DNA from: a virus
Direction: 5' to 3' (one strand)
Virus record (IMG/VR): IMGVR_UViG_3300025018_000101
Location: 1-64,000 of that record
Length of the DNA stretch: 64,000 nucleotides
Below, piece after piece: positions 2,903 through 60,261 of the stretch. The number at the start of each line of letters is the position of its first letter. Position 1 is the first letter of the stretch. The position numbers and the translations under genes were made by a program. The notes under the pieces were generated by a model that made no database searches, was not told the DNA's origin, and saw only the letters and a list, made by a program, of their open reading frames with translations.

Positions 2903-3382
2903 ATGGGACGAAAGAAGCTCGGGTACGGCATCCAGGGCGCCATGCACGACCCTGCCGCCTGCGCCAAGCAGGCGTACGCCGAACTGGACGCCCTCGTGGC
3001 CCGAGAGGGGCGCGCGCCCTACGGGTGGGGCGAGGAGCGGCGAGAGGAGCTCCGTCTCCTCCAGGAGCGGGCGGTCAAGGCGCTCGTCCAGCGCTGGATG
3101 GACGCCCAGCCCGGCGGCCGACCGGCCGCCTGGGACATCGTGACGCAGCAGCTCCAGCCGGCGGTCAGGACGTTCTTCGCCACGGTGCGCTGCGATGACG
3201 CCGACGCGCTCTTCGACGGCCTGAGCGTCGACTGGCTCGACGACGACCACAAGGGCGTGACCTGGGACGCCAGGACCCGGGTCAGCGCCGCGTCTACCGC
3301 GACGTTCCTGGGGACCGGCGTCGGCGTCGAGCCAGGAAAGCCCCACCACCGCTTCGAGGTGAGGCGGTCGAGGACGCGCTGA
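2903..3382 (+). CDS. hypothetical protein
   Basis: GGAGG RBS before ATG 2903. Confidence 0.7.
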   Translation: MGRKKLGYGIQGAMHDPAACAKQAYAELDALVAREGRAPYGWGEERREELRLLQERAVKALVQRWMDAQPGGRPAAWDIVTQQLQPAVRTFFATVRCDDADALFDGLSVDWLDDDHKGVTWDARTRVSAASTATFLGTGVGVEPGKPHHRFEVRRSRTR

Positions 3383-3481
3383 GGACCTGCGCGCGCCTCT
3401 TGGAGGATGCGCGCGACAGGTGTAGAGTTGGCTACCCTACGCAGGGAGCCAGCTCAGGCATCGAAGTGACGGGGGCGCTCG

Positions 3482-4336
3482 ATGAGCGACAAGACCGAGA
3501 AGACCGTCCTGGCGTTCGGCGCCGGGGTGCAGTCGACAGCGCTGCTGATGCTGGCGCTGACCCGCGACATCCGGTTCCTGGCGGCTGGATGCGGGCTGCC
3601 CGACCTGGTGGTGTTCGCCGACCCGGGGTCTGAGGGTGCGGCGACCTATGACCACGTGGACGCCATGGAGAGGCGGTGTGTCGAGGCTGGCGTCCCGTTT
3701 CGCAGGGCACGCTTCACGAAGCACGGCCGTGAGATGACGCTGATGGAGGAGATCGCGACCGAACAGCGGTTCTCGACCATCCCGGCCTTCAGCAAGAACC
3801 TCAAGACCGGCACGGTGGGCATGCTCGGCAGGTCGTGCACGCGCGACCACAAGATCCGGCCCATCGCCCGTGCCATCCGGCAGTGGCTTGGCGTACGTGC
3901 CGTCATGGCGCGGACCCACCTCATCCACTTGCAGCTCGGCATCAGCAAGGATGAGGCCGACAGGGCCAAATCCGAGACGCAGATCACGTGGCAAACCCGC
4001 CAGTTCCCTCTGCTCGACCTCAACTGGTCTCGTCGAGACTGCGAGCGCTACCTGCAGGGCATTGGCGTGTGGCCCGTGCCGAAGTCCGCCTGTACGTTCT
4101 GTCCGTACCAGGCTGACTGGCGCTGGCGCCAGAAGTACGCCGCCCGCGGGCACGACTGGCTCGAGGCCGTCCAGATGGACGAGACCCTGCGCGGCCTCAA
4201 CGGCCGCGGCAACATCAGCGGGGGGGTCTACCTCCACCGCTCCGCCATCCCGCTCGCCGAGCTGCCCTTCATGAAGGACGGGGTCGACGGCGACGATGCC
4301 TTCAGCAACGAGTGCGAAGGCTACTGCGGGGTCTAA
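3482..4336 (+). CDS. PAPS-reductase-like / adenine nucleotide alpha-hydrolase (PP-loop) protein
   Basis: VLAFGAGVQST PP-loop, FADPGSE, RSCTRDHKIRPI, GISKDE, PKSACTFCPY and C-terminal ECEGYCGV. Confidence 0.8.
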   Translation: MSDKTEKTVLAFGAGVQSTALLMLALTRDIRFLAAGCGLPDLVVFADPGSEGAATYDHVDAMERRCVEAGVPFRRARFTKHGREMTLMEEIATEQRFSTIPAFSKNLKTGTVGMLGRSCTRDHKIRPIARAIRQWLGVRAVMARTHLIHLQLGISKDEADRAKSETQITWQTRQFPLLDLNWSRRDCERYLQGIGVWPVPKSACTFCPYQADWRWRQKYAARGHDWLEAVQMDETLRGLNGRGNISGGVYLHRSAIPLAELPFMKDGVDGDDAFSNECEGYCGV

Positions 4337-5540: not shown

Positions 5541-6376
5541 ATGCCGACACGACTCGGATTGAGGAGCTCCTCGAGGCGTTCCTCGAGGAGCTCCTCAAGG
5601 AACTGTCCGAACAACGGTCCAGTAGGCCCGAGGGGCCCACGGACAGTGAGAGGGCGTATATCGCCCGCCTGAACGCCTCCGCCGAGGAGAGCGCGCGGCT
5701 GGCAGGGGCCGCCAGCGAGAGGGCGTGCCTCGTGGACGCCGAGAACGCAGAGCTTCGCGCGCAAGTGGACGTCTTTCGCGCCCAGCGTGATGCGGCCGAG
5801 CGGAGGGCGGGAGCCCTGCTCGAGGAGCTCAACGGGCACATCTACGCCGAGGAGGAGGTGCAGACCCTCCTCGAGGACAAGACGGTCGAACTCAGGAGCG
5901 CCGTGGGCTTCCTCGACCTGGCGCGCCAGGACCTCGAGATCTCCCGGCGCCGCGCGGCCGGCCTGGCCCTGACGCGCGACAAGGCGATCGACGCGCGCGC
6001 CGACGCCCTCGCCGCACGGACCGCCCTCGCTCGCGAGCTCGCCGAGGTTGAGGGCGCGCTCCTGGCCGCCAACAACGAACTGGCGGAGCTACGCGCCTGG
6101 AAGCGAGAGCGCTTGGAGGAGTTGGGCGGGCAGGACACTGTCAAGCGGCTCCTTGAGACTCGCTACTTCAAGATCAAGGAGCTGACCTCCGACCTCTACC
6201 TCTCCCGTGAGCGGGAGCAGGGTCTGTCGGACGAGCTCAAGTCCGCGCGCGCCCGCATCGCGGCGCAGGTCGCGACCATCGTCAAGCTCGGGGCCGCGCT
6301 CGAGCACGACGGGCCTCCGGCCGACGAGGGCGCCGCGACGGCGGTCCCTCCCGGCACGAACAAGGACGAAGGGTGA
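5537..6376 (+). CDS. coiled-coil hypothetical protein
   Basis: Heptad-rich E/L/A/R sequence; coupled starts and stops. Confidence 0.75.
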   Translation: MNADTTRIEELLEAFLEELLKELSEQRSSRPEGPTDSERAYIARLNASAEESARLAGAASERACLVDAENAELRAQVDVFRAQRDAAERRAGALLEELNGHIYAEEEVQTLLEDKTVELRSAVGFLDLARQDLEISRRRAAGLALTRDKAIDARADALAARTALARELAEVEGALLAANNELAELRAWKRERLEELGGQDTVKRLLETRYFKIKELTSDLYLSREREQGLSDELKSARARIAAQVATIVKLGAALEHDGPPADEGAATAVPPGTNKDEG

Positions 6377-7008
6377 TGGAGCGCGCTCCCAACCTCCTCG
6401 ACCTCCTCAGGAGCTGGGTGACCGACGCCAACACGTCCCCCTCGTGCCGGGCTGCCTGCGCCTACGTAATGTACGCCCATGAGGCCTCGGAAGGCCCGAA
6501 CCCTGTGGCCGACGACTACCTCCGGACCCACGCCCTGGCCACGTGGCGTACGTCCTACCCGCTCGACGGCCAGGTCATTGCGGGCGCCATCGACTTCTGC
6601 CTCGTTCCGGACGAGGCGCGCGAGATCTGGACGACTCGCGAGGACACCCCGGATGCCCTACGCGCCATCATCGACGCGTTCCCCGCCGGCCTCGAGAGCG
6701 CCCTGCTCTCTCACGCCGCGTCCGACCTGTCCTGCGCCATGGACTGGGACCGCTTCGACTCCTACCAGTTCACGGACGACATCTACGGGATCCGGGATGC
6801 GTTCGCCTGGGTAGGTGAGAGCCTCTACGACCGCCTCGCGGATGTGGAGTACGCGATCGAGGATACCGGAGCGTCCGTTCGCGGCGGCTTCCTCCAGGCG
6901 TACGCCGACCGCCTGGGGTCCATTCGTCAGGAGCTCTACACGGAGGTCAGTGCGCACCTCGAGGATCTTCGCGCCCTTGGGCTCGAACGACTCGGAGGGT
7001 CCGTATGA
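6373..7008 (+). CDS. hypothetical protein
   Basis: Coupled ORF with typical codon bias. Confidence 0.7.
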   Translation: MMERAPNLLDLLRSWVTDANTSPSCRAACAYVMYAHEASEGPNPVADDYLRTHALATWRTSYPLDGQVIAGAIDFCLVPDEAREIWTTREDTPDALRAIIDAFPAGLESALLSHAASDLSCAMDWDRFDSYQFTDDIYGIRDAFAWVGESLYDRLADVEYAIEDTGASVRGGFLQAYADRLGSIRQELYTEVSAHLEDLRALGLERLGGSV

Positions 7009-7211
7009 GCGTATTCCCCCTGGCAGAGCTCAAGCGCCTGCCCTCGCTTTCAAGAGGTCAGACAGCCGACCTCAAGGTGGACTACGGCCGCACGCGTGTG
7101 TGGCTCGAGCGCGTCGGTACCGCCGATGGCGCGCCCTACGACAACCAGGTGGTTGTCGAGACGTTCGACGGCCATCGCTGGCGCGTCACTCACTCATCTG
7201 AGGCCACATGA
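7005..7211 (+). CDS. small hypothetical protein
   Basis: GGAGG RBS; ATGA overlaps at both ends. Confidence 0.7.
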   Translation: MSVFPLAELKRLPSLSRGQTADLKVDYGRTRVWLERVGTADGAPYDNQVVVETFDGHRWRVTHSSEAT

Positions 7212-10439: not shown

Positions 10440-11546
10440 ATGAACGCTCTGGAAGCAGGGTGCGAGGCGGCCTTCAAGGTAGCTGGCCTCGGCGACTTTG
10501 CGCGCCAGCACGCCGGCGCTATCGAGAAGGGCGTCGGAGGTCTCGCCGGCGCAGGTCTCGGGGCTGGCATTGGCTACGCGACGGGCCGCGATGACGGGGA
10601 CGGGAGCGGCTCGACACGACTGAGGAACGCGCTCCTCGGAGGTGGGATCGGGGGCGTAGCGGGCATCGGGGCTGGTCATGTCGTGGGCGGCGGGACTCGC
10701 AGGAGGGCGGCGGGCGCCTCCGCAGCGGCGGAGGAGGCGTACTCCGCCGCCCGTCCGCCCACGCCCCCCGACGACTATGGCCTGGATCTCTTGCTCGCCG
10801 AGATGGACCACAATGCGGCGGCGTTCGCGCGCGATACTCTGCCCTTCGCGGGGTTCTGGACGCCGCGTATAGCGCCGATGGCGTTTGCGTCTCCTGGCGC
10901 GACGAAGCTCTCCAGCGCCCCCTGGGAGTCCAAACTCCTCGAGTACGGCATCGGCGGAGCTGGCGGTGCCATCGCTGGCGGCCTCGGCACCCGCGCCTTC
11001 ACCGACGACACCGGCATGGTCGCCGGCGGCGCTCTCGCCGGCGGAGCTGCCGGCGCGATGGGCGTAGGCGAGCTGATGCATCGCCGGCGAAGGAGCATCG
11101 GCCGCGATATCGAGTCGATGCTGCCCGGCATGCACGAACAGGTGGCGGCGTTGATGCGTCACCACGCCGGAGAGGCCGAGCGCAACATGACCACCCTCGA
11201 GCGAGCGGCCGAGGTCCTGGCGCAGAAGCACGACCGCCTCATGGCCGTCGCGGCCAACCTGCCGCCCGGCGTCTCCCCCAGTCGGGAGCGGGCCCTGGCA
11301 TCCGCTCTCGAGGAGGTCCGCGTGGGTGAGGCGGCGATCCGCGAGAACATGTCGAGGGTCGCGCAGCGCCAGATGGACGCCCAGATGGCCTTCGACGCTG
11401 GCCGAGAGTCCGCCCTGGCGCACATCCGCCAGGCCGTGCAGGCACCCTTCGCCGCCGACGTGGCGACACCGGAGATGCGGCAGGCGGTGGCGCAGCAGGC
11501 GCTGCAGCAGTGGTTGGACAAAGTCAACGACGGCGACGTCGTGTAG
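10440..11546 (+). CDS. KVAG-leader glycine-zipper protein with C-terminal coiled coil (putative virion-internal protein)
   Basis: MNALEAGCEAAFKVAG leader followed by two pairs of GxxxG-rich hydrophobic segments. Confidence 0.75.
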   Translation: MNALEAGCEAAFKVAGLGDFARQHAGAIEKGVGGLAGAGLGAGIGYATGRDDGDGSGSTRLRNALLGGGIGGVAGIGAGHVVGGGTRRRAAGASAAAEEAYSAARPPTPPDDYGLDLLLAEMDHNAAAFARDTLPFAGFWTPRIAPMAFASPGATKLSSAPWESKLLEYGIGGAGGAIAGGLGTRAFTDDTGMVAGGALAGGAAGAMGVGELMHRRRRSIGRDIESMLPGMHEQVAALMRHHAGEAERNMTTLERAAEVLAQKHDRLMAVAANLPPGVSPSRERALASALEEVRVGEAAIRENMSRVAQRQMDAQMAFDAGRESALAHIRQAVQAPFAADVATPEMRQAVAQQALQQWLDKVNDGDVV

Positions 11547-11559
11547 GGTGAGGTGAGCC

Positions 11560-11748
11560 ATGGACCGTTCAGCACACGCACGAGGCATTCGAGTGGCTTT
11601 CAAGACCGCCGGGCTCATCGAGGAGATCTCCGACCGTATGCCCGAGGCCTGGCACGACCTGCGTGCGCAGGGTCAGGTCGGCCTCTCCGGCGCCGAGGGC
11701 CAGAAACTCCGTGACCGCCTCGGCCTGGGCGGATGGGGAGGCACATGA
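11560..11748 (+). CDS. short KTAG-leader peptide
   Basis: GAGGTG RBS; RGIRVAFKTAG motif. Confidence 0.6.
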   Translation: MDRSAHARGIRVAFKTAGLIEEISDRMPEAWHDLRAQGQVGLSGAEGQKLRDRLGLGGWGGT

Positions 11749-12170
11749 GCCTCACCGCCTTCATCCCCGGCGAGCCCGTCGGCAAGGGCCGCCCCCGCTT
11801 CAACACCGCCACCGGCCACGCCACGACGCCGCCCCGGACGCGCAAGTGGGAGAAGACGGCCTCGGAGCTCCTGACCTGGCTTGCCCGAGCCCAGGGCTGG
11901 AAGCACGACGGTGAAGCAGTCGCGGTCCACATCGTGGCCGTCTACGCGCGGCCGAAGACGCTGAAGTTCCCTGGCCGAAGCGTCTGCAAGGGTGGCGGCG
12001 GCCGTCCCGACCTGGATAACGTCGTCAAGGCCGTGCTCGACGCGGCTGAGAAGGCTGGCGTGCTGTCCAACGACTCGGCCGTCGTTGGACTCTCTGCGTC
12101 GGCGTGGTACTGTGGCCTGGACGACAAGGACCCCGGTGTGGAGGTCCGCGTCGCCCTGGCGCCAACATGA
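11745..12170 (+). CDS. rusA: RusA-family Holliday junction resolvase
   Basis: GEPVGKGRPRF and RPDLDNVVKAVLDA...LSNDSAVV catalytic motifs. Confidence 0.85.
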   Translation: MSLTAFIPGEPVGKGRPRFNTATGHATTPPRTRKWEKTASELLTWLARAQGWKHDGEAVAVHIVAVYARPKTLKFPGRSVCKGGGGRPDLDNVVKAVLDAAEKAGVLSNDSAVVGLSASAWYCGLDDKDPGVEVRVALAPT

Positions 12171-12204
12171 CGGGGCCCGGCTGGGCCCGCACAGGAGATG
12201 AGAC

Positions 12205-12531
12205 ATGAACGCGTACGAAGCAGGCTTCATCGAGGCCCTCAAGACCGCCGGCATCGGCGCGAAGACCATCGGCGCCATCGCGGGCGGTGTGACGGGCGCG
12301 GCTGGCGGCGCGGCCGCAGGTGGCGAGGACCATCGCCTCAGCGGCGCACTGGTCGGGGGTGCGGTCGGCGCCGGTCTCGGGGCCGGGGCGGGTCACCTCG
12401 CCCGCGCCCGCGGCGCTGTTTCGAAGCAACTGCCCAAGCACCTGAATGTCAGGGCGCCCGAGGCTATCTTCAGGGACGTCAAGCCGAGCTTCCAGATGAA
12501 CCAGATCCTCCCGCCGAAGTCGGCGGGCTAA
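12205..12531 (+). CDS. KTAG-leader glycine-zipper protein
   Basis: AGGAG RBS; MNAYEAGFIEALKTAG followed by GxxxG segments. Confidence 0.75.
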   Translation: MNAYEAGFIEALKTAGIGAKTIGAIAGGVTGAAGGAAAGGEDHRLSGALVGGAVGAGLGAGAGHLARARGAVSKQLPKHLNVRAPEAIFRDVKPSFQMNQILPPKSAG

Positions 12532-12599
12532 GGTACGCGGCTCCGAAGTTGGCCCGCTCCCTGGACCGCCTCCTCGCCAGCCCCTGACAGGGTACGACC

Positions 12600-14168
12600 G
12601 TGACCCACAAGCGCGCAACCTACCTGGACTACCTCATTCCTGGCCTCGCGGCAGGCGCGGGATCGGCGCTCGGAGCCGGGTCCGTGTACACGGGCAAACC
12701 GGCGACGAACGCGAAAGGTGTGCCCCGCAGCGACCACTACAAGAGGAACCTCGCTATCGCGCGAGGCGCCCTCGGCGGTGTGATCGGAGGGGCTGCGGGT
12801 CTCGGGGCGCGAGCCATAGCGCATGCGCCGTCGTACGCCGACCTACGGCGGGCGCCGCCGGCGTCGGCTGGGCCCCCGGAGCAGGCTATCGACCCACTGG
12901 CGGGGCTGTTCGAGGGGGCGGCAGGTCGGGACACGCACGCCTACAGAGAGGCGTACGGCGGCGCGGCCTCCCGCCCTGGCGGGCGGAGCACCCACCCGAG
13001 GCCGCCCGCCCCCATCCGTGGGGACGCGCCGGCGGGAGCGGACGCCGTAGACCGTGCGGTGCAGGCCGTCCGACAGAACCAGCTCGAGCCAGATCCTGTC
13101 GTCCAGCCCCAGGGCGCCGAGGACGACGCCATGGACGACCTCATCTCGAGGCTGCGCGGCGCGCAGTCCCTACCGGACAAGGAAGCAAGCATGAACGCTC
13201 GACAGAGAGGCGTCTACGCCGCCCTCAAGACCGCCGGGCTCGTCGCCTCTGGCCTTGGCATGCTCGGCACGGGGGCCGCAGGTGCCTACCTTGGCGCCAC
13301 GGCGGCAGGACCGGACAGCAAGTACACCGGCGCTCTGATCGGCGGAGCGCTGGGTGCGGGTACGGGCGCCGTCGGGGGCCACTTCGCAGGCAAGGCGGTC
13401 ATGTCCCGACTGGGGCGAGGTACCGTTGCGAGCGCGGGAGCGACGGCCGGGAAGGCCGTCGCCAACCGTCAGGTCCTCAAGACGTCTTCCGTCCTTGGGT
13501 ACCTCCGCAAGACGGCGGGCATGGGCACCCACGCCATCATGGGCAGCCTCGCAGGGGGAGCACTGGGCAGCACCGTCAACAGTGCCGTCAACTCGCCGGG
13601 CTACGGGCCCGTAGCCGAAGCGGAGCTCGGCCACCGCGCCACTCTCACCGACCGCGTGCTCGGCAAGAGCAAGGCGCTGTCGGCGGAGCTCCTCGGTGGC
13701 GGTCTGGCGGCAGGTGCTTTGGCTGGCGCCGGGCTCGGCCACTGGGCCACGCGCGGGGCGGGCAAGCTCACGCGTCCTGGCCAGGTCATCTCCCGTGTCC
13801 TGGGGGGCGACTCGGTCCTCGACGCTGCCGCGGACGTCGCCGACGACGCTCGGTTTCAGCTCGAGATCGGCGGCCTCGCCAAGCAGGCTGAGATGGGCGT
13901 CAAGGGCATTGGAGCCCTTCTCGGTGGTGTAGGCGGCGCGTACACCGGCGCCAGGCTGGCACCGGAGGGCTCTGGCGGCACGGGCTTCCTGACCGGTGCG
14001 GCCGCAGGAGCTGGCGCCGGCGCGCTCGGAGGCCACTACCTCGGCAGGGCGATTCTGGCGCGGGCGCCGAAGGTGCTCCCGGCGGTGGTCGAGGGGTCGA
14101 AGGCCGCGGCGTTCCTGACGTACGAGAACGCGCCACTGAGTGACGCGACAAGGGGAGTCGGGCCGTGA
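12600..14168 (+). CDS. multi-module glycine-zipper polyprotein with internal K-x-A sites
   Basis: Four Gly-zipper hairpins preceded by KRA, KEAS-MNARQRGVYAALKTAG, RKTAG and KQA. Confidence 0.75.
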   Translation: MTHKRATYLDYLIPGLAAGAGSALGAGSVYTGKPATNAKGVPRSDHYKRNLAIARGALGGVIGGAAGLGARAIAHAPSYADLRRAPPASAGPPEQAIDPLAGLFEGAAGRDTHAYREAYGGAASRPGGRSTHPRPPAPIRGDAPAGADAVDRAVQAVRQNQLEPDPVVQPQGAEDDAMDDLISRLRGAQSLPDKEASMNARQRGVYAALKTAGLVASGLGMLGTGAAGAYLGATAAGPDSKYTGALIGGALGAGTGAVGGHFAGKAVMSRLGRGTVASAGATAGKAVANRQVLKTSSVLGYLRKTAGMGTHAIMGSLAGGALGSTVNSAVNSPGYGPVAEAELGHRATLTDRVLGKSKALSAELLGGGLAAGALAGAGLGHWATRGAGKLTRPGQVISRVLGGDSVLDAAADVADDARFQLEIGGLAKQAEMGVKGIGALLGGVGGAYTGARLAPEGSGGTGFLTGAAAGAGAGALGGHYLGRAILARAPKVLPAVVEGSKAAAFLTYENAPLSDATRGVGP

Positions 14169-14911
14169 AAGACCAACGTGACCGCGAGCAGTCCCCGATT
14201 TGGGGGACAGTCAAGGACCTGGCGACCGTAGGTGTCGGAGCCGCCGCGGCCGACAGAGGCATCGCGCGCATTCACGGCGCGCCGACCTACTACCACGGCG
14301 CAGCAGACCCGCTAGAACTAGGGCTGGGTCGCGTCGAGAGCATTCGGCGCGAGGGTCTGCGTTCTGAATTCGGTGGCACGGGCGCGTCAAGGGTTCACGA
14401 GGATATGGCCGCCTCGTCAGCGGGCAAGGTCCACGTCACGACCAGCCCCCGCAGCGCCAATTTCTACCGGCGCTACTACGTGCCCGACGGCGCCCCCGTA
14501 GGGGACGAGATGTACGACGTGATGGGCATGGTCCCGTCCGCGGGCGGGGGCGAGGTGTTCAAGTTCGTCCTGCCGAAGGGCATCCGCGACACACTCGTCG
14601 AGGACCTGGACGACGGGGCCGCGTTCACGACGCACATGAACATCCCTGCCGACGTCGTGAATCAGACCCTGGCGGACAGGGCCCTCCTGAAGCTGAAGAA
14701 CGTGCCGAGCCACGTCATGGAGCACCCTGGGCAGGCTGCCCTCGGAGCTGGGCTGTTGGCGGTGGGAGGAGGCGCCGCGTACCTGGGTGGCAGGCGCCTC
14801 TACGACCGGTACATCGGCAGTCGCGACGCGAAAGAAGCAGGCTACGCTGCGGCCTTCAAGGTCGCAGGGCTCCGAGAGTCTGCCGCGGACGTACTGGCCG
14901 CTGGCCGCTGA
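14165..14911 (+). CDS. putative ADP-ribosyltransferase-fold (Tpt1/KptA-like) domain between hydrophobic Gly-rich segments, with C-terminal FKVAG motif
   Basis: TYYHG...SIRREGL...KVHVTTSP...A.FY...NIP motif order; EAGYAAAFKVAG near the C-terminus. Confidence 0.6.
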   Translation: MKDQRDREQSPIWGTVKDLATVGVGAAAADRGIARIHGAPTYYHGAADPLELGLGRVESIRREGLRSEFGGTGASRVHEDMAASSAGKVHVTTSPRSANFYRRYYVPDGAPVGDEMYDVMGMVPSAGGGEVFKFVLPKGIRDTLVEDLDDGAAFTTHMNIPADVVNQTLADRALLKLKNVPSHVMEHPGQAALGAGLLAVGGGAAYLGGRRLYDRYIGSRDAKEAGYAAAFKVAGLRESAADVLAAGR

Positions 14912-17519: not shown

Positions 17520-20048
17520 ATGCCGTCGTACGCCGGCGCCGCCGAGCCCTCCGAGTACCTGGTCTACCTGTGCGGCATACAGGTCCCGTGCCTGAGCGTG
17601 GACGTCACGGTAGGCATCTGGGACCCGCCCCGCTGCCAGTTGCAGTTTGCCCCGGACCCCGTGTTCCGGCGCATCGGGCAGGATGACATCATGCCGGTGC
17701 AGGTCTTCTACCTGGACGTCATCGGCCGGAGCGCCGTCGGTCAGGCGCCCGAGTGGTGCCTCCTATTCGACGGCATCATCTCGGGACAGGCCTACAGTAG
17801 CGCCAGCGGCTCGCGGACCACCAGCCTGTCGGCCGTCGACCTGACGACGACCATGATGATGATGCGCATGTTCTGGCTGACGAACATCAGCAACCTTACC
17901 TACGCCACGACCGAGAACGCCGGCAACGCCGCCTACTCCGTGGCCCCTGAGTACGCCTTCCCGGCGTCCCTGTTCTACCTCGGCCTGAACCCGACCGAGA
18001 AGCTGCCGATCACTCGGCCCTTCGACTTCGTCGAGAACATGTTCCGGGCGATGTGCTCGGTCGAGGAGGCGGGCGTCTTCCTGTCCGACGCGGTCATCGC
18101 GGAGGCGAACGCGGACGGCGATACGCCGCTGTCCTACAAGAGCGTGGTGGCCCTGCATTGGTGGGCGCGCTGGGCCAAACGCACGGCGTTCCTCGAGCGT
18201 TGGGTGCCGATGCCCGGCGTCGAGGACTTCGCCGCGCCACAGGACCGGCCCCCGTTCCCCATTCTGGACGCCCTGCAGAAGGACGAAGCGGTCAAGGCCA
18301 TCAAGGGCCTCAGCAACTCCATGGGTGATGGCGCGTCGATGTGGGACCTGCTGCGCATGATCTTCCAGCGACTCTCCTACGACGTCGCCATGATCCCCTC
18401 TCCAGCGGCCGTGCAGGTAGCCCGGGGGGTCCGGAACATCATCGGCCCTCCCGTCGGCGGCGTTCCCAACGCACTGGTGCAGTACGTCACCAAGCCGAAG
18501 ATGCCTTTCTGCCTGGCCCCGGCGTGCAACGTCGTCTTTCCCGGGATGGTGACCTCGCTGTCCTACTCCGAGGACTTCCTGCAGCAACCAACCCGCCTGA
18601 TGCTGTCCGACGGGACGCTCTTCAACGTCATCGGAGCGACCGAGTCCGAGTCCCTGGCGGCCGTCTACAACGCAGCGCTGGCCACAGCGTGGCCGCCGCG
18701 GGCCCAGGAGATTCTCGACCGCCACCTCGGCCGTGGAGACAACGCCGCCCCCGACCCGCTGACCAACCCTCACAACCTCCTCGTCTTCCCCTCGGAGTTC
18801 TTCCGAGGGCCCGTGCCGGTCGAAGCTGCCATCCCGAGCTGGTTCATGTACATGGCCAACTCCGCCCAGATCGACCTGGCGCCCGAGGTGCAGACTACCG
18901 TCGACGACTACAAGCGAGACATCCAGGCCGAGCTCACGCGGCGGGCTGGCTCGGCGAAGGCGGAGGACAAGAAGGCCCTCGACGAGATCAAGAAGGTCGT
19001 GGACGGCCTGCCCACGTCGGTCGAGGAGGCCGGCGGCACGGTGACCGGCAAGGACATCCTTGAGGCGTGGTCTGGCGTGTCGGACAAGCTGGCGCTGCCC
19101 ACCGGCCCCCTGGCTGGGCATCAGGCGTCCTACGAGTTCGGCGCCATCATCCGTGGCCGAGCGGCCTCCCTGTTCGGCGACGGCACCACCCGCCAGCTCT
19201 ACGCCGCGCAGATGTTCGCGCAGGAGCGCTACAAGCATCGGTCTGGAGGGGCCTCGTGCCTGTTCCACCCCTACCTCGTCCCCGGCTTCCCCGTGGCGGT
19301 GTTCGACCGGCAAGAAGCGGCCCACCACGTCGAGGGCCTCCTCATGAACGTCTCGCACCACCTCTCGGCAGACTCGTGCGGCACGACGCTCAACTTCTCC
19401 TACGGTCGCACCACGGCCGAGCTCTTCCACGCCGCCCGCACGTCGGGGTACCCGCTGTCGACGGGTCCGGCCGAGTACATCCCAAAGATCCGCGACACCT
19501 TCCAGCAGGTCATCCCCGCCGAGGAGCAGTACCGGAAGCTGTTCTACCAGAACCGGAGCGTCGAAGGTCGCCGCGAAGCCTTCGACGCCTTCAACACGCT
19601 CTACTGCCGAGGCCGCTCCGACAGCACGGAGATCCCGTGGCAGCCGGCTACCGTCCCTTCCCTGGCGGACCTGGACAACGAGGACGTCGACTTTGCCTTC
19701 GCGCCCGAGTTCGCGAAGCGGGTCGAGGACCCCGCCGAGGCGCGCCGCATGGCGTCCCGCCCCGTGGTCACGCTGCCGGAGTGGATGGCCCTGATGGGCT
19801 CGTACAGCCCTGCGAAGGAGGAGCGCGCGAAGTACTACGTCCCGCCGGGTAGCCGTCGGGACCACAACACGGTACGGTACTGGTGGAAGATCCTGACGCT
19901 GGTGCCAGGCCCCGGCACCGAGCCCGTGCACACCGAGCAAGGCAACGTGACGCAGGCGGTCCAGGCCGATACGCGCAGGGATTGGCAACGCCGCCTGATT
20001 GAGTACCGCACTCGCTTCTACAGTCGCACGACGGGGAGGCTCGCATGA
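17520..20048 (+). CDS. baseplate hub protein (GpD/gp27/VgrG-like) with insertions
   Basis: N-terminal LVYLCGIQVP..VDVTVG, LLFDGII, TSLSAVD; C-terminal PYLVPGFPV...LMNVSHHLS...TTLNF. Confidence 0.6.
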   Translation: MPSYAGAAEPSEYLVYLCGIQVPCLSVDVTVGIWDPPRCQLQFAPDPVFRRIGQDDIMPVQVFYLDVIGRSAVGQAPEWCLLFDGIISGQAYSSASGSRTTSLSAVDLTTTMMMMRMFWLTNISNLTYATTENAGNAAYSVAPEYAFPASLFYLGLNPTEKLPITRPFDFVENMFRAMCSVEEAGVFLSDAVIAEANADGDTPLSYKSVVALHWWARWAKRTAFLERWVPMPGVEDFAAPQDRPPFPILDALQKDEAVKAIKGLSNSMGDGASMWDLLRMIFQRLSYDVAMIPSPAAVQVARGVRNIIGPPVGGVPNALVQYVTKPKMPFCLAPACNVVFPGMVTSLSYSEDFLQQPTRLMLSDGTLFNVIGATESESLAAVYNAALATAWPPRAQEILDRHLGRGDNAAPDPLTNPHNLLVFPSEFFRGPVPVEAAIPSWFMYMANSAQIDLAPEVQTTVDDYKRDIQAELTRRAGSAKAEDKKALDEIKKVVDGLPTSVEEAGGTVTGKDILEAWSGVSDKLALPTGPLAGHQASYEFGAIIRGRAASLFGDGTTRQLYAAQMFAQERYKHRSGGASCLFHPYLVPGFPVAVFDRQEAAHHVEGLLMNVSHHLSADSCGTTLNFSYGRTTAELFHAARTSGYPLSTGPAEYIPKIRDTFQQVIPAEEQYRKLFYQNRSVEGRREAFDAFNTLYCRGRSDSTEIPWQPATVPSLADLDNEDVDFAFAPEFAKRVEDPAEARRMASRPVVTLPEWMALMGSYSPAKEERAKYYVPPGSRRDHNTVRYWWKILTLVPGPGTEPVHTEQGNVTQAVQADTRRDWQRRLIEYRTRFYSRTTGRLA

Positions 20049-22549
20049 TCGAAGACCTGGTCGCCCCGATTCTGCCGGTGCTCGACAAGCTCGACGCCCC
20101 CGAGGGCCCTCAGTACGAGGTCGAGGGCATCTCCCTGGCCAACCGCCGCGAACTGACCAAGAGCCTGCTCCGCAAGGCCATCGACGCTACCGGGCTGAAG
20201 CAGCCTGCGCAGCCGAAGCAGGCTGTCTTTGCGCCGAAGAACTTCAGCCTGAGTATGCCCCCGGCGAAGCCTCCGACCGGCCCTGGCCCGCTCAAGCCCC
20301 CGCCCATCCCCAAGCCTGGCGTCATGTCCCCCTCGCCCATCGCGCCGTCAGTCACCCCCGGCGCGACGGCGACCACGGTCGGCGTCCCGGCGGGGAGCAC
20401 TACTTCCAGTGGCACGACGAAGATGAGCGCCCCGGGCATCAAGCCGCCCACACCGGTCAAGCCTCCGCCGCCCATCAAGCCGCCCGCGCCCCCGTCACTG
20501 GCGCCCATCCGACCTCCGAAGCCGAAGAAGGCCCCAGCCACGGAGGTCGCTGGCGCCGTGCAGGGCCCGACGTTGACGAAGGGCCCGCAGCTCCGACATC
20601 CCGGCCAGCAGGGCGGCAGGGACCCGGTCGGGGCGATCAACAAGTTCCTCAAGAGCGGGGCGCTGGACGACTTCCGCCCCCGCGTCGAGGTCTTCCTCTT
20701 CAACGACAAGGGGCAGGTTCTGGCGGGTAGCACACCCGGGCGGGACGGGTTCAAGTTCCCCGGTGGCGGGATCGACGGCGACCCGGTCGACCATGCCGCC
20801 CGCAAGGAACTGCGGGAGGAAGCGGGCTACAAGGTGAAGCATCTCCAGTCTGTAGGCCTGCGCCCCGACAAGCGGGAGTGGTCACAAGCCACGCGCGACG
20901 GCGTCCTGAAGGCCACGGGCGGCAAGCGCGACTTCGGCGGCGACGTCACCCACTGGCGTATGGGCGTGCACTCGGGCCGCGACACCAGCGTGCTCGGGTC
21001 GGAGGGTGACGCGCTTGCCCGGGCGCAGTTCCGGGACGTGCCAAAGGTTCTGGAGTCGCTGAGGGAGCAGACGAAGGACCCGGACGCGTTCATCGCGGGG
21101 CGGTCCCAGGTGCGTCACGACGCCCTCGCGGCAGCCCACCAGCGGTACCAGAACAAGTTTGCCATGGGCCCTGGAGCGGCCGCGCTCCTCGCCGCAGGCG
21201 GCGGGGCAGCAGTGGGGGCGGGCGCACTCGGCGCGGGCTATCTCGCAGCCCAGCGTCTCCCCGCGTTCCTGCCTGGGGTCGAGGACAAGGCCGTCGAGTT
21301 CGCCGCCCTCAAGGACGAGATGGACCCGCTTGAGCGCCTCACCGGGTACAGTTCGCGTGGGGCGGAGCTGATGGGCGCACCCCTGATGCGCCGCCATGAC
21401 GGGTCCATGGTCAGCGGCCGCAACTTCGTCCGTGCCGTGCGGAGCAGCGCCCCCGCAGCGGCGGTCGGGCGGGCGAAGGGCGTCCACGCCTGGGATGAGT
21501 CCAAAGCGGAGCACTACAACCAGTTCCGTCGCGGGCCCGCCAATGCCCTGCTCGTCCTGGCCAAGGAGGAGTTCGGCAAGGGGGAGAACTACGACTACCT
21601 CGCCCAGGCGCTGCAGGGCACTCGCAACGGCGACGTGCAGGCGCAGGCCGCCGCCGTGGAGGCGCTACGTCACTCAGAGGACCCGGAGGTGAAGCGCATC
21701 GCTGCGGAGCTCATGCCGCGCCTCGAGCGCAACCTGACGTCGTGGGGTACAGGCATCCAGGTCGGCCGCACGTACGAGAAGGCCAGGAAGTTTGTCCAGG
21801 GCGAGAAGGAGGCGGCCCCTCGGGGCATGGACCTGACGCACTCCTACCAGACCGCCAAGGACCGGGACAAGGCCTTGTGGGACGCCTACAAGGCCGACCC
21901 GTCGCCCATGAACCTCAAGGCGGTCATGGACAGCCTGTCGCCAGCTATCGAGAGCGAGATCGCGCGCTGGAGCGGACAAGTGCCCGTGACGGTCATGCGT
22001 CTCGAGGCCCGCAAGCTGGCCGTGGAGGCCATCAAGAGCTACGACCCGAACATGGGGACGGCGCTGTCGACGCACGTCCTGAACAAGCTCAAGCGCTTGA
22101 GCCGCACGGTCTACTCGCATCAGGATCTCGTCCGGATGCCGGAGAACCGCAAGCTCGAGAACAACGCCCTGCACAAGGGCCGCGTGCAGCTCCTCGACGA
22201 GCTCGGCCGCGACCCGACCACTGCGGAGCTCAGCGACCACCTCGGCTGGTCCGGCGCGAAGGTCACGAAGGTCCAGGCGTTCCAGGTCTCCGAGTACGTC
22301 GAGAGCCAGGACGTCGGCGGCGATATGTTCGGCAACGTCGCCGGCGGCGCCACCAGTGACCCGCGCGTCGCCTTCGTGTACAACGACCTGAGCCCCGTGC
22401 ATCAGACCATCTTCGAGCACACGACCGGCTACGGCGGCAAGTCCATCCTGACGGCACGCGACATCGCAGCCAAGACCGGCCTCAAAGAGCACCAGGTGGC
22501 TTACCAGCGCCGAAAGATCACGGACAAGTTCCAGGATGTACTGAGGTAG
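20045..22549 (+). CDS. polyprotein: Pro/Lys-rich linker, Nudix hydrolase, glycine zipper, sigma-70-like factor
   Basis: Nudix box FPGGGIDGDPVDHAARKELREEAGY; sigma region 2 AIKSYDPNMGTALSTHV, region 3 LGRDPTTAELSDHLG, region 4 HTH TARDIAAKTGL. Confidence 0.8.
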   Translation: MIEDLVAPILPVLDKLDAPEGPQYEVEGISLANRRELTKSLLRKAIDATGLKQPAQPKQAVFAPKNFSLSMPPAKPPTGPGPLKPPPIPKPGVMSPSPIAPSVTPGATATTVGVPAGSTTSSGTTKMSAPGIKPPTPVKPPPPIKPPAPPSLAPIRPPKPKKAPATEVAGAVQGPTLTKGPQLRHPGQQGGRDPVGAINKFLKSGALDDFRPRVEVFLFNDKGQVLAGSTPGRDGFKFPGGGIDGDPVDHAARKELREEAGYKVKHLQSVGLRPDKREWSQATRDGVLKATGGKRDFGGDVTHWRMGVHSGRDTSVLGSEGDALARAQFRDVPKVLESLREQTKDPDAFIAGRSQVRHDALAAAHQRYQNKFAMGPGAAALLAAGGGAAVGAGALGAGYLAAQRLPAFLPGVEDKAVEFAALKDEMDPLERLTGYSSRGAELMGAPLMRRHDGSMVSGRNFVRAVRSSAPAAAVGRAKGVHAWDESKAEHYNQFRRGPANALLVLAKEEFGKGENYDYLAQALQGTRNGDVQAQAAAVEALRHSEDPEVKRIAAELMPRLERNLTSWGTGIQVGRTYEKARKFVQGEKEAAPRGMDLTHSYQTAKDRDKALWDAYKADPSPMNLKAVMDSLSPAIESEIARWSGQVPVTVMRLEARKLAVEAIKSYDPNMGTALSTHVLNKLKRLSRTVYSHQDLVRMPENRKLENNALHKGRVQLLDELGRDPTTAELSDHLGWSGAKVTKVQAFQVSEYVESQDVGGDMFGNVAGGATSDPRVAFVYNDLSPVHQTIFEHTTGYGGKSILTARDIAAKTGLKEHQVAYQRRKITDKFQDVLR

Positions 22550-22575
22550 CTCAGTAGTCCCGACGGGAGTAACCT

Positions 22576-23655
22576 GTGGACATCTGGATGCTCAACGCCG
22601 GCGCCCCCGACCGGCCGGCCGCCATGGCCGCCACCCTGCTCAAGCTGGGCGTCACCGACTTCGCCTTCATGGTGAACAGGGCGCTCCCGCGAGGGACGTC
22701 CGTCGCGCTCCGCAGGAACCCTGGCTCCGCGGCGGCGAAGTTCAAATTCGACCAGACCTCCCAGGAGCGCAGCGACGCGTGTATCGAGGGCATGAAGGCC
22801 GCAGGCATCCGGACTCACCTCATCGTCTGGATGTCGGGCATCCCCGCCTTCATCAAGTCGCTGGTCGCGGACTTCTTGCCCTACGCGGCCGCTTCTGGGG
22901 CTACGTCGATCATCTGCGACGCCGAGGTGGACTGGCAGCGCGCGTCCGGCGTTGACGCGCTCGTCGAGGACCTCCTCATCCCAGGCCTGGAGCCTTTCCC
23001 AAAGCCCGTGCACTGGGACTCCTACCCTACCCCCCACAAGACCGACCTGCGCATCGCAGCCTACTGCATCAAGGAGCGCGGGGCGCTGAACGGGTTCGCG
23101 TTGCCGCAGTGCTACACGCACCTGCGCCAGGAGAATGGCACGGTCACGGAGCCCACGCGCCGCTACGCCACGCCGGACAAGTACCCTGCCAGAGGCATTC
23201 GGCAGTGGCGCCGCATCGTCGGCGACCGCGTGATCCCTATTGTAAGCGTCTTTGGTGACCCGTACCCGGGCTGGACCGCGTCGAACGCTCTGGCGGCCGG
23301 GCTGAATCAGGCGGCGAAGGCGGCCACACCCGCCGTGGGGATCTGGAGCGCCAGGGCGATCCTGAACATGGGCACGGGCCAACTACTGAACGACACGGAC
23401 ACCCGGGACGTGGCCAAGGTGCTCGGCCGCTTTCAGGCCAGCGGCGGGTACGTCGACTACAAGCACGTGGTCTACCGAGCCAGAGAGCGCGGGGACCTGT
23501 CGCGCAACCGCCAGCAGGAGGCGGAGGACGAGGCGAAGGACGCCGAGCGCAGAGCGCGCCTCCTGGCCCTCGGCGGCGCACGGTCCGACCACAACTTCGA
23601 GTCCTCGGTAGTTCCGGGGCTCCGGTACGACTTCGCGGCGGGGAGGTGGGTCTGA
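22576..23655 (+). CDS. putative glycoside-hydrolase-like (virion lysin-like) protein
   Basis: IICDAEVDW and ALPQCY motifs parallel those of 14992..16080; located in the baseplate module. Confidence 0.5.
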   Translation: MDIWMLNAGAPDRPAAMAATLLKLGVTDFAFMVNRALPRGTSVALRRNPGSAAAKFKFDQTSQERSDACIEGMKAAGIRTHLIVWMSGIPAFIKSLVADFLPYAAASGATSIICDAEVDWQRASGVDALVEDLLIPGLEPFPKPVHWDSYPTPHKTDLRIAAYCIKERGALNGFALPQCYTHLRQENGTVTEPTRRYATPDKYPARGIRQWRRIVGDRVIPIVSVFGDPYPGWTASNALAAGLNQAAKAATPAVGIWSARAILNMGTGQLLNDTDTRDVAKVLGRFQASGGYVDYKHVVYRARERGDLSRNRQQEAEDEAKDAERRARLLALGGARSDHNFESSVVPGLRYDFAAGRWV

Positions 23656-45673: not shown

Positions 45674-45693
45674 CCTACGCACGGAGACACCTC

Positions 45694-46029
45694 ATGCCCA
45701 TGCACTTCCAGAAGGTCTTCACCCAGGCGTCCGCCGCATTCACGGACACGACTCCTGACGGCGTCTTCACACTCACGCAGGCCACCGTCGGGAGGGCTCT
45801 CGACGACCAGTACAGCAAGCACCAGGTGCAACTGCAGGGCACGTCTGGCGACACCTTCGTCGTCGACATCCAGGTGTTCGGTGACACCGCTTGGAGGACC
45901 TACAACTCCGCCGCGCTGGCCGAGGATACGGTGGTCCTCATCGATGAGGTCGTCGTCACAGCGATCCGCGTGACGGTCTCGACGATCAACGCCACCACGC
46001 AGCTCCTGCTGGTGTCGAGGGCCAGCTAA
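45694..46029 (+). CDS. small beta-rich hypothetical protein
   Basis: GGAG RBS; follows the terminase gene. Confidence 0.65.
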   Translation: MPMHFQKVFTQASAAFTDTTPDGVFTLTQATVGRALDDQYSKHQVQLQGTSGDTFVVDIQVFGDTAWRTYNSAALAEDTVVLIDEVVVTAIRVTVSTINATTQLLLVSRAS

Positions 46030-46093: not shown

Positions 46094-46098
46094 ATGCG

Positions 46099-57447: not shown

Positions 57448-57824
57448 GCAGCAACCACCACCGGTTCAACGAGTCCTTCAAGTGGTCCGAGCACATGGCG
57501 ACCGCCGGCTACAACGGCAACCCGTCCATTCCTCCGGACCACCCGCTGGCCAGGCTCTTCTCCGACGGGGCGCCCTCGGCTCCAGTCGGACCCGGGTTCG
57601 ACCCGAAGACGTCCAAGGTGCGCTTCCGGCGCTTCGACCTGGACGACGAGGAGGAGCGCGAGGACCTGGAGAACATCCTGACGGACTGCATGCGCGGCCA
57701 GGGCAAGTTCCTCGACAGCCAGACCCTACACACCACCCCTGACGGCCGTGCGATCGTCACGATCTGCTGGGTCGAGTGGGAGGTCCAAACGGCGAAACGG
57801 CCCAAGGGTCTGGACGACGTCTGA
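57444..57824 (+). CDS. hypothetical protein coupled to the portal gene
   Basis: AGGAGG RBS; ATGA overlap. Confidence 0.7.
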   Translation: MSSNHHRFNESFKWSEHMATAGYNGNPSIPPDHPLARLFSDGAPSAPVGPGFDPKTSKVRFRRFDLDDEEEREDLENILTDCMRGQGKFLDSQTLHTTPDGRAIVTICWVEWEVQTAKRPKGLDDV

Positions 57825-57840
57825 GGAGAGGCAGGTCACG

Positions 57841-60261
57841 ATGGCACTGAAACCCGACGTCGTTCTTCAGCCGCACCAGGAGTCGGCACGCACGCGGTTT
57901 CGCGCCAAGCCTGGCTTGCTGATCAACCACGGCCTGGGCTCCGGCAAGACCTTGACGTCGATGGCGCTGGCGGAGGATGTCGGCGGCCGCGCCCTCGTCG
58001 TCGTGCCAGCGTCGCTGCAGGCGAACTACCGGGACCAGTTGCAGAAGTTCGTCACCGAGGACCGACACGGCGACTACGACATCGTCTCCTACGACAAGTT
58101 CAGGGCGGACCCCGAGTCCTATCTCGACAAGGAGCCGTCCGTCCTGATCGTCGATGAGGTCCACCGCCTGCGCAATCCGGGTAAGAACCGGGACGCCATC
58201 GAGATGGCCCGCAAGCGCATCCCGCGCATGGTAGGGATGACGGCCTCGCTCGCCTCGAACACGCCGCTCGAGTCCGTACCCCTGATCAACCTCGTCGCCG
58301 GCAAGAGCGTCATCTCGCAGGCTAAGTTCAAGAGGGATCACATCGGCGAGATCGAGGTGAAGCCTGGCCTCGCGGGCCGACTGCTCGGCGCCGAGTCGGG
58401 CTATGTGCCGGTCATCATCAACCGCAAGGGCCTGCACGACAAGCTCGCCCCCTTCGTCGACAGGTACACGGGCAGCGACGCGTACCGGAAGTCGCTGCCT
58501 GGTCGCGTCGACGAGGTCGTCGAAGTGCCCATGTCGGCCCACCAGAAGGACGTCTACGAGGGCATCATCAACACGAGCCCGGCGCTGGCGTACAAGATCC
58601 GGCAGAACCTCCCGCCGAGCAAGAAGGAGCTCAAGGACCTCAACGCCTTCCAGACCGCGGCGCGTCAGGTCATGAACGCCACCGAGCCGTACGTCGACGT
58701 CCGCGAGGGCCAGGACCTGCCCTCGATGTCGCCGAAGCTCCAGCGCGTCGCGGACGACCTGGCGGCACTGGCGAAGGACGACCCCAACTTCCGCGCCGTC
58801 GTCTACAGCAACTTCCTCGATGCGGGTACGCGCCCCGTGCTGCGCGCCACCGAGACGGCCTCCGGCCTGTACGAGGGCTCGGTGTCCCAGAAGGAGCGCC
58901 AGAGGGTCCTCGCGCGCTACCACTCCGGCGAGGCCCCCGTCCTCGGGCTCAGCCCGGCGGGTGGCGAGGGTCTCGACCTGAAGGGCACCAAGATGATGGC
59001 GGTGCTCGAGAGTCACTGGAACCCCGAGGTCACCAACCAGGCCATCGGCCGCGCCATCCGCTACAAGTCCCACGATCACCTCCCCGAGGACGAGCGCTCT
59101 GTCATCGTCCGCCAGTATCGGTCGGTCTACCCCGACTCGTGGCGCCACCGCATCTCAGGCCGCCCCACGTCCATGGACGAGTACATCGCCACTCGCGCCC
59201 AGGAGAAGGCCACCTTCAACGAGGACTTCATGAACGCACTCGACTCCAAGCCGCGCTCCCGCGGCGTCAAAGCCGCCTTCAAGGTCGCGGGCATCCCCGA
59301 GATGGCCGCGCGCCTGATGGACAGCGACCTCGTCAACTCCAACAGCCTCGGCTACTCCCTGCTCCGCGCCGCCCCCGGCGCCGCCCTCAGCGTCGCCAGC
59401 CTCGGCCTCGGAGCTGGCGTGGCCAGCAGTGAGGACCCCAACGCCCCGCCCCAGTACCGAGCCCAGGGCATGCTCGGCGCGGGCATCGGCATGGGACTGG
59501 CGGGCGCCTTCGCCCCCGCCGTGCTCAAGTCCATCGCGCTCCGTCCAAAGGGACTGATGCTGAACGCAGAGGGCATCGCGGCCGCCCCGCTCGGCGCCCG
59601 GGGCCGGGCGCTCCACCTGGACCCGGCGTTCCTCGACGCGCCGATTCACCCGTCGCACCCCCTGTCGTGGCGCGGGATGCCCTCGGTGGCGGAAGAGCTG
59701 GAGATGAACGGTGGCCGGACCGACAGGCTCCCTGTGACCGGGAACACGGTGCTCGACCTCATGGGCCGGCTCCAGGGTGACCGGCCTCACATCGACGGCC
59801 GCCTGCCCTGGACGGGCGAGAACGCCTTCGACGGCGTCAGGCCGTGGGAGGGGGAGCGCCTCCCTGCCGGCGCTCTGGGCGCAGACCTGGGCGACTACGG
59901 CGCGGAGATCCCTGTGCTCGGCACGTACGGCGACAGGCGCACGATGTCCGCCGCCTACAACACCTCGCGGCGCCAGACCGAAGCGGCCGTCGACGCCGCA
60001 CGAGCCGCCATCGCGAACGCTCCCGAGGGCGCTGACCTGGCCTCGCTCCAGGACGCCCTGGACGAGGCGGAGAGCTCCCACACCCCAGGGGTCTGGTCCT
60101 CGGACGCTACGAAGGCCGTCATGGAGACCAACCCAGAGACGGCCCTCGGCGTGGGCGGCCAACTCGCGAGCCTGGCTGCCAGTGGCCTCGCAGGCATCGG
60201 CGGCTGGTTCGGCGGCAAGGCCCTCGGCCGAGCCCGGGCTGAGCGAGGCGAAGGGACCTAA
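57841..60261 (+). CDS. SNF2-like superfamily 2 helicase fused to an FKVAG-leader glycine-zipper module
   Basis: LQPHQ, HGLGSGKT, IVDEVHRL, GMTAS, GGEGLDL and QAIGRAIR motifs; then MNALDSKPRSRGVKAAFKVAG and GxxxG segments. Confidence 0.85.
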   Translation: MALKPDVVLQPHQESARTRFRAKPGLLINHGLGSGKTLTSMALAEDVGGRALVVVPASLQANYRDQLQKFVTEDRHGDYDIVSYDKFRADPESYLDKEPSVLIVDEVHRLRNPGKNRDAIEMARKRIPRMVGMTASLASNTPLESVPLINLVAGKSVISQAKFKRDHIGEIEVKPGLAGRLLGAESGYVPVIINRKGLHDKLAPFVDRYTGSDAYRKSLPGRVDEVVEVPMSAHQKDVYEGIINTSPALAYKIRQNLPPSKKELKDLNAFQTAARQVMNATEPYVDVREGQDLPSMSPKLQRVADDLAALAKDDPNFRAVVYSNFLDAGTRPVLRATETASGLYEGSVSQKERQRVLARYHSGEAPVLGLSPAGGEGLDLKGTKMMAVLESHWNPEVTNQAIGRAIRYKSHDHLPEDERSVIVRQYRSVYPDSWRHRISGRPTSMDEYIATRAQEKATFNEDFMNALDSKPRSRGVKAAFKVAGIPEMAARLMDSDLVNSNSLGYSLLRAAPGAALSVASLGLGAGVASSEDPNAPPQYRAQGMLGAGIGMGLAGAFAPAVLKSIALRPKGLMLNAEGIAAAPLGARGRALHLDPAFLDAPIHPSHPLSWRGMPSVAEELEMNGGRTDRLPVTGNTVLDLMGRLQGDRPHIDGRLPWTGENAFDGVRPWEGERLPAGALGADLGDYGAEIPVLGTYGDRRTMSAAYNTSRRQTEAAVDAARAAIANAPEGADLASLQDALDEAESSHTPGVWSSDATKAVMETNPETALGVGGQLASLAASGLAGIGGWFGGKALGRARAERGEGT

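Follow-up and report, generated by a model that had tools for sequence, protein, structure and literature searches.

The capsid targeting sequence (CTS) of the T4 proteins IPI, IPII, IPIII and Alt terminates in the motif cleaved by the gp21 protease. In the internal proteins of T-even phages a short N-terminal peptide is the sole conserved part of a diverse set (PMC3012670), and T4 Alt is itself a packaged ADP-ribosyltransferase (ART) (PMC5512222). In phage SPN3US, which encodes the protease gp245 and packages its own RNA polymerase, N-terminal propeptides are removed from head proteins, ejection proteins among them; two of these propeptides measure just 20 and 24 residues, and several copies of the cleavage motif can lie within a propeptide (PMC10052503). 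The polyvalent and MuF-fused effectors of phages constitute a further class of multi-domain proteins, with ART and SWI2/SNF2 domains as network hubs, that are predicted to be packaged, injected and sometimes proteolytically processed (Iyer et al. 2017, PMC5512222). Here we analyze a 64,000-nucleotide stretch of viral DNA (the window), which is the first 64 kb of the 155,236-bp phage record IMGVR_UViG_3300025018_000101 in IMG/VR (G000). Several proteins encoded in it, most of them between positions 10,440 and 14,911, share a peptide of about 16 residues, termed here the leader, that ends in Lys-x-Ala (K-x-A). We describe this family and consider whether it may act as a cleavable propeptide on proteins destined for the phage head.

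The original prediction for this window reported six copies of a motif centered on A-[FL]-K-[VT]-A-G. A search over all six frames of the 155,236 bp recovered exactly these six, each in the frame of a plus-strand gene, with the first base of the initial Ala codon at 10470, 11596, 12235, 13221, 14852 and 59275. The expected number of such hexamers given the proteome composition is 0.035, and 300 shuffled proteomes contained 0.047 on average and one at most. Likeness among the copies extends back as far as a Gly six positions ahead of the Lys, and four of them start with M-N-A. Their assigned placement was also borne out (Table 1): the annotated genes P1, P2 and P4 each begin with a copy, two further copies are internal, in P5 and in an open reading frame (ORF) encoding an SNF2 helicase, and one lies in the C-terminal tail of P6. 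Both internal copies (13191 and 59230) open with an in-frame ATG behind a purine-rich tract. Third-codon positions vary among copies (GCC/GCT, GTA/GTC, GCT/GCC/GCA/GCG and GGC/GGG), and conservation therefore acts on the peptide; a DNA-level element is ruled out by this variation at synonymous sites. Three copies (10440-10460, 12205-12225 and 14822-14842) all use GAA GCA for E-A, rare codons where third-position guanine-plus-cytosine (G+C) content is about 90%. The P6 copy, now away from any gene start, is among the three, and the sharing is consistent with a recent common origin or with derivation from a 5′ gene end.

The nearest cultured relative of G000 is the Salmonella phage Arash (OQ632216), a myovirus. 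An alignment of proteins similar to Arash gp6 fetched 37 related IMG/VR loci, three of which have the leader (G002, G004 and G005). Together with G000 these make four leader-bearing IMG/VR phages; they form an uncultured subclade of Arash-like phages with an RNA polymerase of their own. Scanning of the genome and its relatives with a motif profile, as had been proposed, covered 39 records with a 25-column profile of the leader. It returned 6, 8, 7 and 6 copies in G000, G002, G004 and G005, or 27 copies in four genomes, and no convincing scores in the 35 other records searched, Arash included. No leader was found in Vibrio phage D181, and a metagenomic protein matched by HMMER (P0021) contributes one further copy. 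The consensus over about 16 residues is M-x(1-3)-[FY]-[ED]-x-G-[YF]-x3-[FLMI]-K-x-A, after which G and a hydrophobic residue usually come, and almost every copy in the relatives starts an ORF. Only the terminal K-x-A is constant in all 27 copies, with R replacing K in two G004 copies; the G that comes next is frequent, not universal. Leader identity over 12 residues is 0.58 within genomes, as opposed to 0.38 between genomes. Beyond the leader, BLASTP with low-complexity masking detected no similarity among these proteins except between the P6 body and its G005 orthologue and within one pair of G004 paralogues; distant kinship may still link their Gly-rich parts. By this comparison, the leader appears to be a modular peptide common to proteins that are otherwise unrelated.

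A DNA pattern for the G000 form of the leader, with its M-N-A start, had no match in IMG/VR, and a looser one recovered only G002, G004 and G005, together with about 28 single matches, a number expected by chance, which include an unrelated family of small proteins and, by eye, proteins resembling ribosome modulation factor. A metagenome scan added only L133, a near-copy of G002, and L126, a close fragment that carries no leader. The small proteins picked up by the loose pattern, of about 80 residues, are encoded by small low-G+C IMG/VR contigs (L094-L096, L099, L100, L102, L105, L106, L108, L111, L113, L114, L117-L119 and L124); they start with M-T-K-x-x-K-E-F-D-V-G-Y-Q-V-G-V-K-[SA]-A-G-L-L and end in a hydrophobic stretch. 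P1 and P6 have no close relatives in IMG/VR or in the phage collection, and the sole match to P1 among 5.8 billion proteins is P1 itself.

The K-x-A triplet that closes the leader is abundant in the head proteins of these phages. Enrichment in structural genes had been put forward as a test of the motif, and for K-x-A it is apparent in scaffold-like and other head-operon proteins (binomial p down to 8e-9). In G000, 9 of 10 lysines encoded by 72294-73460 and 8 of 9 encoded by 84016-84717 belong to a K-x-A; the corresponding figures are 12/12 in G002 (22486-23172), 10/11 in G004 (3301-3900) and 10/10 in G005 (136785-137456). Across 175 such head-protein sites V or T predominates in the middle and A, S or G in the next position, as in the leader. 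K-[ET]-A is found between residues 27 and 37 of the major capsid protein in each of the five genomes considered, Arash included.

The prohead protease that the original prediction proposed to look for was located in G000 at 82002-83975, just upstream of a scaffold-like gene. Its product matches the PHROG family phrog_18299, annotated as head maturation protease (E-value 1.7e-7), and its AlphaFold model, confident over residues 45-232, matches T4 gp21 (PDB 5jbl) with a Foldseek probability of 1.00 and a template modeling score of 0.60-0.64 relative to the target, with cytomegalovirus protease further down the Foldseek list. The protein has no match to Pfam PF03420 and sequence searches against the PDB were empty, the match being obtained by fold search alone. 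On the basis of this model, G000 is predicted to encode a head protease of the T4 gp21 fold. Among 54 homologues of this protease, K-x-A occurs at residue 32 in every one, followed by S in 50, and K-V-A occurs at residue 254 in 47, within a disordered linker that follows the domain. In the flanks on either side, 44% and 40% of lysines fall within a K-x-A, versus 8.6% within the catalytic domain, a pattern that would be expected of self-processing sites. Herpesvirus assemblins have the same fold as gp21 and cleave between Ala and Ser, and an Ala immediately before the cut (the P1 site of protease nomenclature) is therefore not exotic for this fold. In the literature we found no paper on K-x-A protease specificity.

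Two further features of the head operon are worth recording. The head protease gene is evidently split by inteins in some relatives, with homologues P0147, P0148, P0160, P0163 and P0169 spanning about 1,030-1,075 residues and containing the intein and homing-endonuclease Pfam domains PF14528, PF14890 and PF05203. Beyond the window, positions 80328-81086 and 81244-82002 of G000 encode two Gly-rich proteins of 252 residues, identical as printed, that form a tandem duplicate; each opens with a 15-residue peptide ending in K-T-A and presents a similar Y-L-x-R-L-L motif again at its C-terminus.

Among the variable cargo domains that had been listed for the leader, the ART fold was recovered. P6, which has 35 HMMER relatives, was modeled with a predicted local distance difference test (pLDDT) score of 81 and a predicted template modeling (pTM) score of 0.71. 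Its best structural match is Tpt1/KptA (VIA-align Z of 9.0, root mean square deviation of 2.2-2.5 Å over 83-84 residues), followed by Arr, Rhs ART toxins, pertussis S1 and PARPs, and the matches listed with Z of at least 5 are ART-fold proteins or one unannotated structure. Y43, H44 and G45 at the start of the domain are invariant in the family, and S85 and H90 nearly so. The P6 cargo is hence modeled as an ART-fold domain. Its presumed attachment behind the leader was not upheld in G000, where the domain lies upstream of the copy. The leader is N-terminal in the G005 orthologue of P6 and in P0021, and in P6 itself it is confined to a unique C-terminal tail. Nor do the Nudix, sigma factor and helicase domains qualify as leader-attached cargo: the Nudix/sigma protein (20045-22549) contains no leader copy, only short K-x-A sites, and the SNF2 helicase domain precedes the leader copy in its ORF. 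Residues 34-498 of this ORF correspond to the whole of the Arash SNF2 helicase gp217, and the leader Met is residue 495.

The ART family provides positional evidence on the K-x-A end. In 12 of 31 domain starts a K-x-A is found 34-43 residues upstream of YHG, where 4.4 would be expected, dispersed across a search window of 43 residues, and it occurs either at the N-terminus or at a junction within a longer protein. Family members without a leader begin at the predicted cut point and have YHG at residues 35-50. Of all comparative signs, this one speaks most clearly for the stretch ending in K-x-A being a dispensable extension that may be removed. Two metagenomic relatives of P6 illustrate the junctions: P0044 (901 residues) joins an SNF2-type helicase to an ART-fold module through K-V-A, and P0024 (651 residues) has two tandem ART modules, each preceded by K-x-A-A-E. 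A 632-residue sigma-containing protein of G005 (44959-46857) has K-T-A at residues 16-18 and, by eye, a Y-H-G-T stretch in its N-terminal extension, which may be another ART-like module.

Paired glycine zippers had also been described in the leader proteins. The Gly-rich uncharged segments are real as composition, and uncharged Gly-rich 19-mers stand behind the leader in P4, P5 and the C-terminal module of the helicase ORF. A Pfam glycine zipper domain did not withstand scrutiny: P4 falls below the gathering cut-offs (17.9 and 18.1 bits against 25 and 24.2 for PF13488 and PF05433), and P1, P5 and P6 have no match. P2 has no Gly-rich segment. The claim that short K-x-A sites precede Gly-rich segments is true in P5, at residues 4, 210, 304 and 428. 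Within the window, where the helicase ORF and P5 are multi-module proteins, only one enzymatic domain per protein was recognized.

The G000 record is 88% complete and has about 69% G+C, which makes a host among the actinobacteria plausible, and the window encodes a large terminase, a family A DNA polymerase, a primase-like protein, a RusA protein and the SNF2 helicase. Gene order agrees with that of Arash, pairing g16086 with gp6, g17520 with the gp8 hydrolase, the C-terminus of g20045 with sigma gp10, g24071 with gp13 and g26587 with gp14. In G002, G004 and G005 the order is gp4-like gene, gp6-like gene, gp8-like lysin, leader cluster, sigma protein and baseplate genes; in G000 the gp6-like gene comes downstream of the leader cluster, and the gp4-like gene is found at 140.9 kb. 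That gene (1,317 codons) is orthologous to the one at the gp4-like position in the relatives, on which ground P1-P6 were set aside as a replacement for the tape measure protein. G004 has leader genes also within the head operon, among K-x-A-rich genes (e.g. 6148-7029). A gene for a RusA-type Holliday junction resolvase sits amid the G000 leader cluster, its start overlapping the end of P2 by 16 bases, an odd site for a recombination gene; it is probably outside the leader system.

Table 1. Coordinates of leader copies, leader-bearing proteins and the interspersed resolvase gene in the window (aa, amino acids; RBS, ribosome-binding site).
Feature	Coordinates	Strand	Remarks
Leader copy 1, N-terminus of P1	10440..10487	+	Profile E-value 1e-9; G-rich RBS-like tract upstream
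P1, 368 aa: leader, uncharged Gly-rich segments at aa 63-84 and 191-210, helical C-terminal part	10440..11546	+	
P2, 62 aa: divergent leader (M-D-R..., then A-F-K-T-A-G)	11560..11748	+	Profile E-value 5.6e-9
rusA-like resolvase gene without leader, within the leader cluster	11733..12170	+	PF05866, E-value 5.4e-21
P4, 108 aa: leader directly before a Gly-rich hairpin (aa 21-66)	12205..12531	+	AGGAG upstream
P5, 522 aa: chain of Gly-rich modules; K-x-A at aa 4, 33, 194, 210, 304, 428 and 501	12600..14168	+	
Leader copy 4, inside P5	13191..13238	+	ATG kept; upstream AAGGAAG tract, read as K-E-A just before Met
P6, 248 aa: Gly/Ala-rich helix, predicted ART-fold domain (aa 40-168), hydrophobic helix (aa 189-209), extra leader-bearing tail	14165..14911	+	
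Leader copy 5, near the C-terminus of P6, without Met	14822..14869	+	Tail absent from other family members
ORF of 837 aa: helicase (aa 34-498) and leader-bearing module (aa 495-837) with three hydrophobic segments	57748..60261	+	
Leader copy 6	59230..59292	+	Met at end of helicase homology; five-residue insertion; GAGGA tract upstream

We propose that the leader is a cleavable propeptide that marks virion-internal proteins, as the capsid targeting sequence does in T4, and we regard the chances of this being right or wrong as evenly balanced. The leader would act as a propeptide on diverse late proteins, and the head maturation protease of predicted gp21 fold would cut at its last three residues, K-x-A, while the additional conserved residues, absent from generic K-x-A sites, would serve recognition or docking. 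After the cut, the Gly-rich helical modules and any enzyme domain between them, for instance the ART-fold domain, would stay in the head and later leave it with the DNA. In units fused in frame, such as P5 and the helicase ORF, the leader would work as a cleavable linker. That the Gly-rich helical modules deliver the cargo is distinctly less probable than the propeptide role. We infer targeting, virion location, cleavage, delivery and membrane insertion from these features; of the capsid-targeting and cleavage signal envisaged originally, what can be seen directly is the shared modular leader, its K-x-A end, the enrichment in head proteins and the match of a protease to the gp21 fold. A more ambitious proposal is unlikely to hold as a whole: that the leader is a portable packaging tag, usable at either end of a protein, that defines a polymorphic set of virion-delivered proteins, that the gp21-fold protease has a new Lys-x-Ala specificity, and that the bracketing Gly-rich helical pairs are a new type of carrier holding enzymes in the head and taking them through the envelope at ejection.

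Arash offers indirect support for the propeptide interpretation. RNA polymerase, sigma gp10, helicase gp217 and gp4 are among the most detected proteins in its virion proteome (PMC10585845), and gp217 and gp10 are homologous to parts of the helicase ORF and the sigma protein of the window. The virion-detected gp221 (L091:16146-16697, 183 residues, head operon) has an N-terminal peptide that ends in L-L-K-A-A-G-V, a second motif E-K-S-A-G-L and then a Gly/Ala-rich hydrophobic segment; missed by the leader profile, it may be a remote counterpart of the leader proteins.

Several observations weigh against a propeptide role. The copies in P6 and after the helicase trail a domain instead of leading one, and three of the four genomes have their leader genes in the tail-lysin, sigma and baseplate operon, outside the head operon. 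Generic K-x-A sites do not have the upstream G-[YF] and [FY]-[ED] of the leader, so a role as a cleavage site leaves the rest of the leader unexplained. A clear amphipathic helix was considered for the leader and is not supported, the helical hydrophobic moment being only modestly above that of shuffled sequences, 13% of which reach it. L126, the closest fragment by its gp6-like protein, shows no leader within 8.7 kb, its lysin running almost straight into sigma, and the leader family is consequently patchy within the clade; Arash has no leader by profile search. The Arash proteome is also a permissive one, comprising 116 proteins with ribonucleotide reductase among them, and its coverage of gp221 is 100% (PMC10585845), which means that the uncut N-terminus was seen in Arash.

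Three alternatives to the propeptide reading merit consideration. The leader could be the uncut cytoplasmic N-terminal helix of a family of phage membrane proteins working in infected cells, in envelope remodeling, exclusion or lysis control, with K-x-A as a coincidence of a helix that contains Lys and Ala. The uncharged 19-mers behind the leader in P4, P5 and the helicase module, the weak matches to Pfam glycine-zipper two-transmembrane families and the proximity of leader genes to the tail lysin would all suit such proteins. We nonetheless deem this improbable, given that K-x-A is constant and the rest of the leader variable, that head-protein sites show the same V/T preference in the middle and that leaderless ART-family members begin at the predicted cut; moreover, P2 and an 84-residue Cys-rich leader protein of G002 have no hydrophobic segment, and the first Gly/Ala helix of P6 is charged and thus not a clear transmembrane helix. 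An origin of the leader in repeated duplication and exchange of cassettes, as a relic that does nothing as a peptide and whose 5′ gene end is kept for translation initiation or recombination homology, would account for leaders being more alike within than between genomes, for the rare codons shared by three G000 copies, for the ATG and Shine-Dalgarno-like tract retained by internal copies and for the 78% identity of two copies over 50 bp of DNA. It would not readily account for an amino acid pattern kept across genomes of 53-69% G+C with varying synonymous positions, for a reading frame intact in all 27 copies or for a P6 copy that has lost its ATG and retains the full peptide motif, and we therefore view it as very unlikely.

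The genomic setting suggests another destination. Docking on a tail chaperone or hub, the leader could send proteins to the tail lumen or baseplate as ejection or tape-measure-like components, with any processing left to an enzyme other than the head protease. This agrees with the position of the cluster in G002, G004 and G005, between the gp8-like tail lysin and the sigma gene and downstream of a gp4-like protein of 1,230-1,300 residues with a Gly-rich N-terminal region, Arash gp4 being the second most detected protein of its virion (PMC10585845). Against it stand the ending of the leader in a motif that is enriched in the head operon and flanks the head protease, the presence of one leader gene in the G004 head operon and the failure to identify a tail chaperone partner. 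We judge a tail destination to be decidedly unlikely.

New in this analysis are how far the leader family extends and what its consensus is in three additional genomes, the modular nature of the leader, the positional evidence drawn from ART-family members and the conserved K-x-A sites on either side of the protease domain. Should the propeptide interpretation be true, this clade would have reinvented the capsid-tagging strategy of T4 with a different peptide and a different cleavage rule, and the proteins injected by uncultured phages that carry an RNA polymerase could be listed using only their sequence. It would also yield a protease specificity for which we found no paper and a candidate tag by which foreign proteins could be packed into phage heads. 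Because it is rich in unknown proteins and contains an ART-fold enzyme, the tagged set is likely to supply functions in early host takeover or anti-defence.

Arash shares with the leader-bearing phages the syntenic tail-lysin, sigma and baseplate operon, the head operon and K-x-A-rich head proteins (10 of 21 lysines in gp220, 8 of 16 in gp223 and 7 of 13 in gp225), but it has no leader family by profile, and its gp217 ends where the G000 ORF runs on into the leader-bearing module. The P6 domain resembles the Tpt1/KptA clade of ART proteins in its Z score and in the Y-H-G at the domain start, yet its identity to them is 13-19%, the N-terminal domain of Tpt1 is absent and the domain lies between two Gly/Ala-rich helices. 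The helicase-ART fusion P0044 and the tandem-ART protein P0024 are similar to polyvalent proteins, and fit that class better than the window proteins do. Unlike polyvalent proteins, these show no MuF, portal or embedded metallopeptidase domain; a K-x-A peptide links or precedes their modules, with a separate head maturation enzyme as the presumed protease. In giant phages, the prohead proteases SPN3US gp245 and phiKZ gp175 take off N-terminal propeptides, but no shared leader has been reported among SPN3US substrates (PMC10052503), whereas here one conserved peptide is reused on many proteins. As with the T4 capsid targeting sequence, a short N-terminal peptide is common to unrelated proteins, a protease of predicted gp21 fold is encoded and one cargo is modeled as an ART fold. 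In contrast to T4, the leader is different and longer, at about 16 residues, its presumed cut is after Lys-x-Ala and not [LI]-x-Glu, its copies are also internal and C-terminal, and many of its cargos are Gly-rich hydrophobic modules where T4 internal proteins are small, basic and soluble. The leader is a CTS-like shared peptide whose sequence is new, whose presumed protease specificity is likewise new and whose cargo is unusual.

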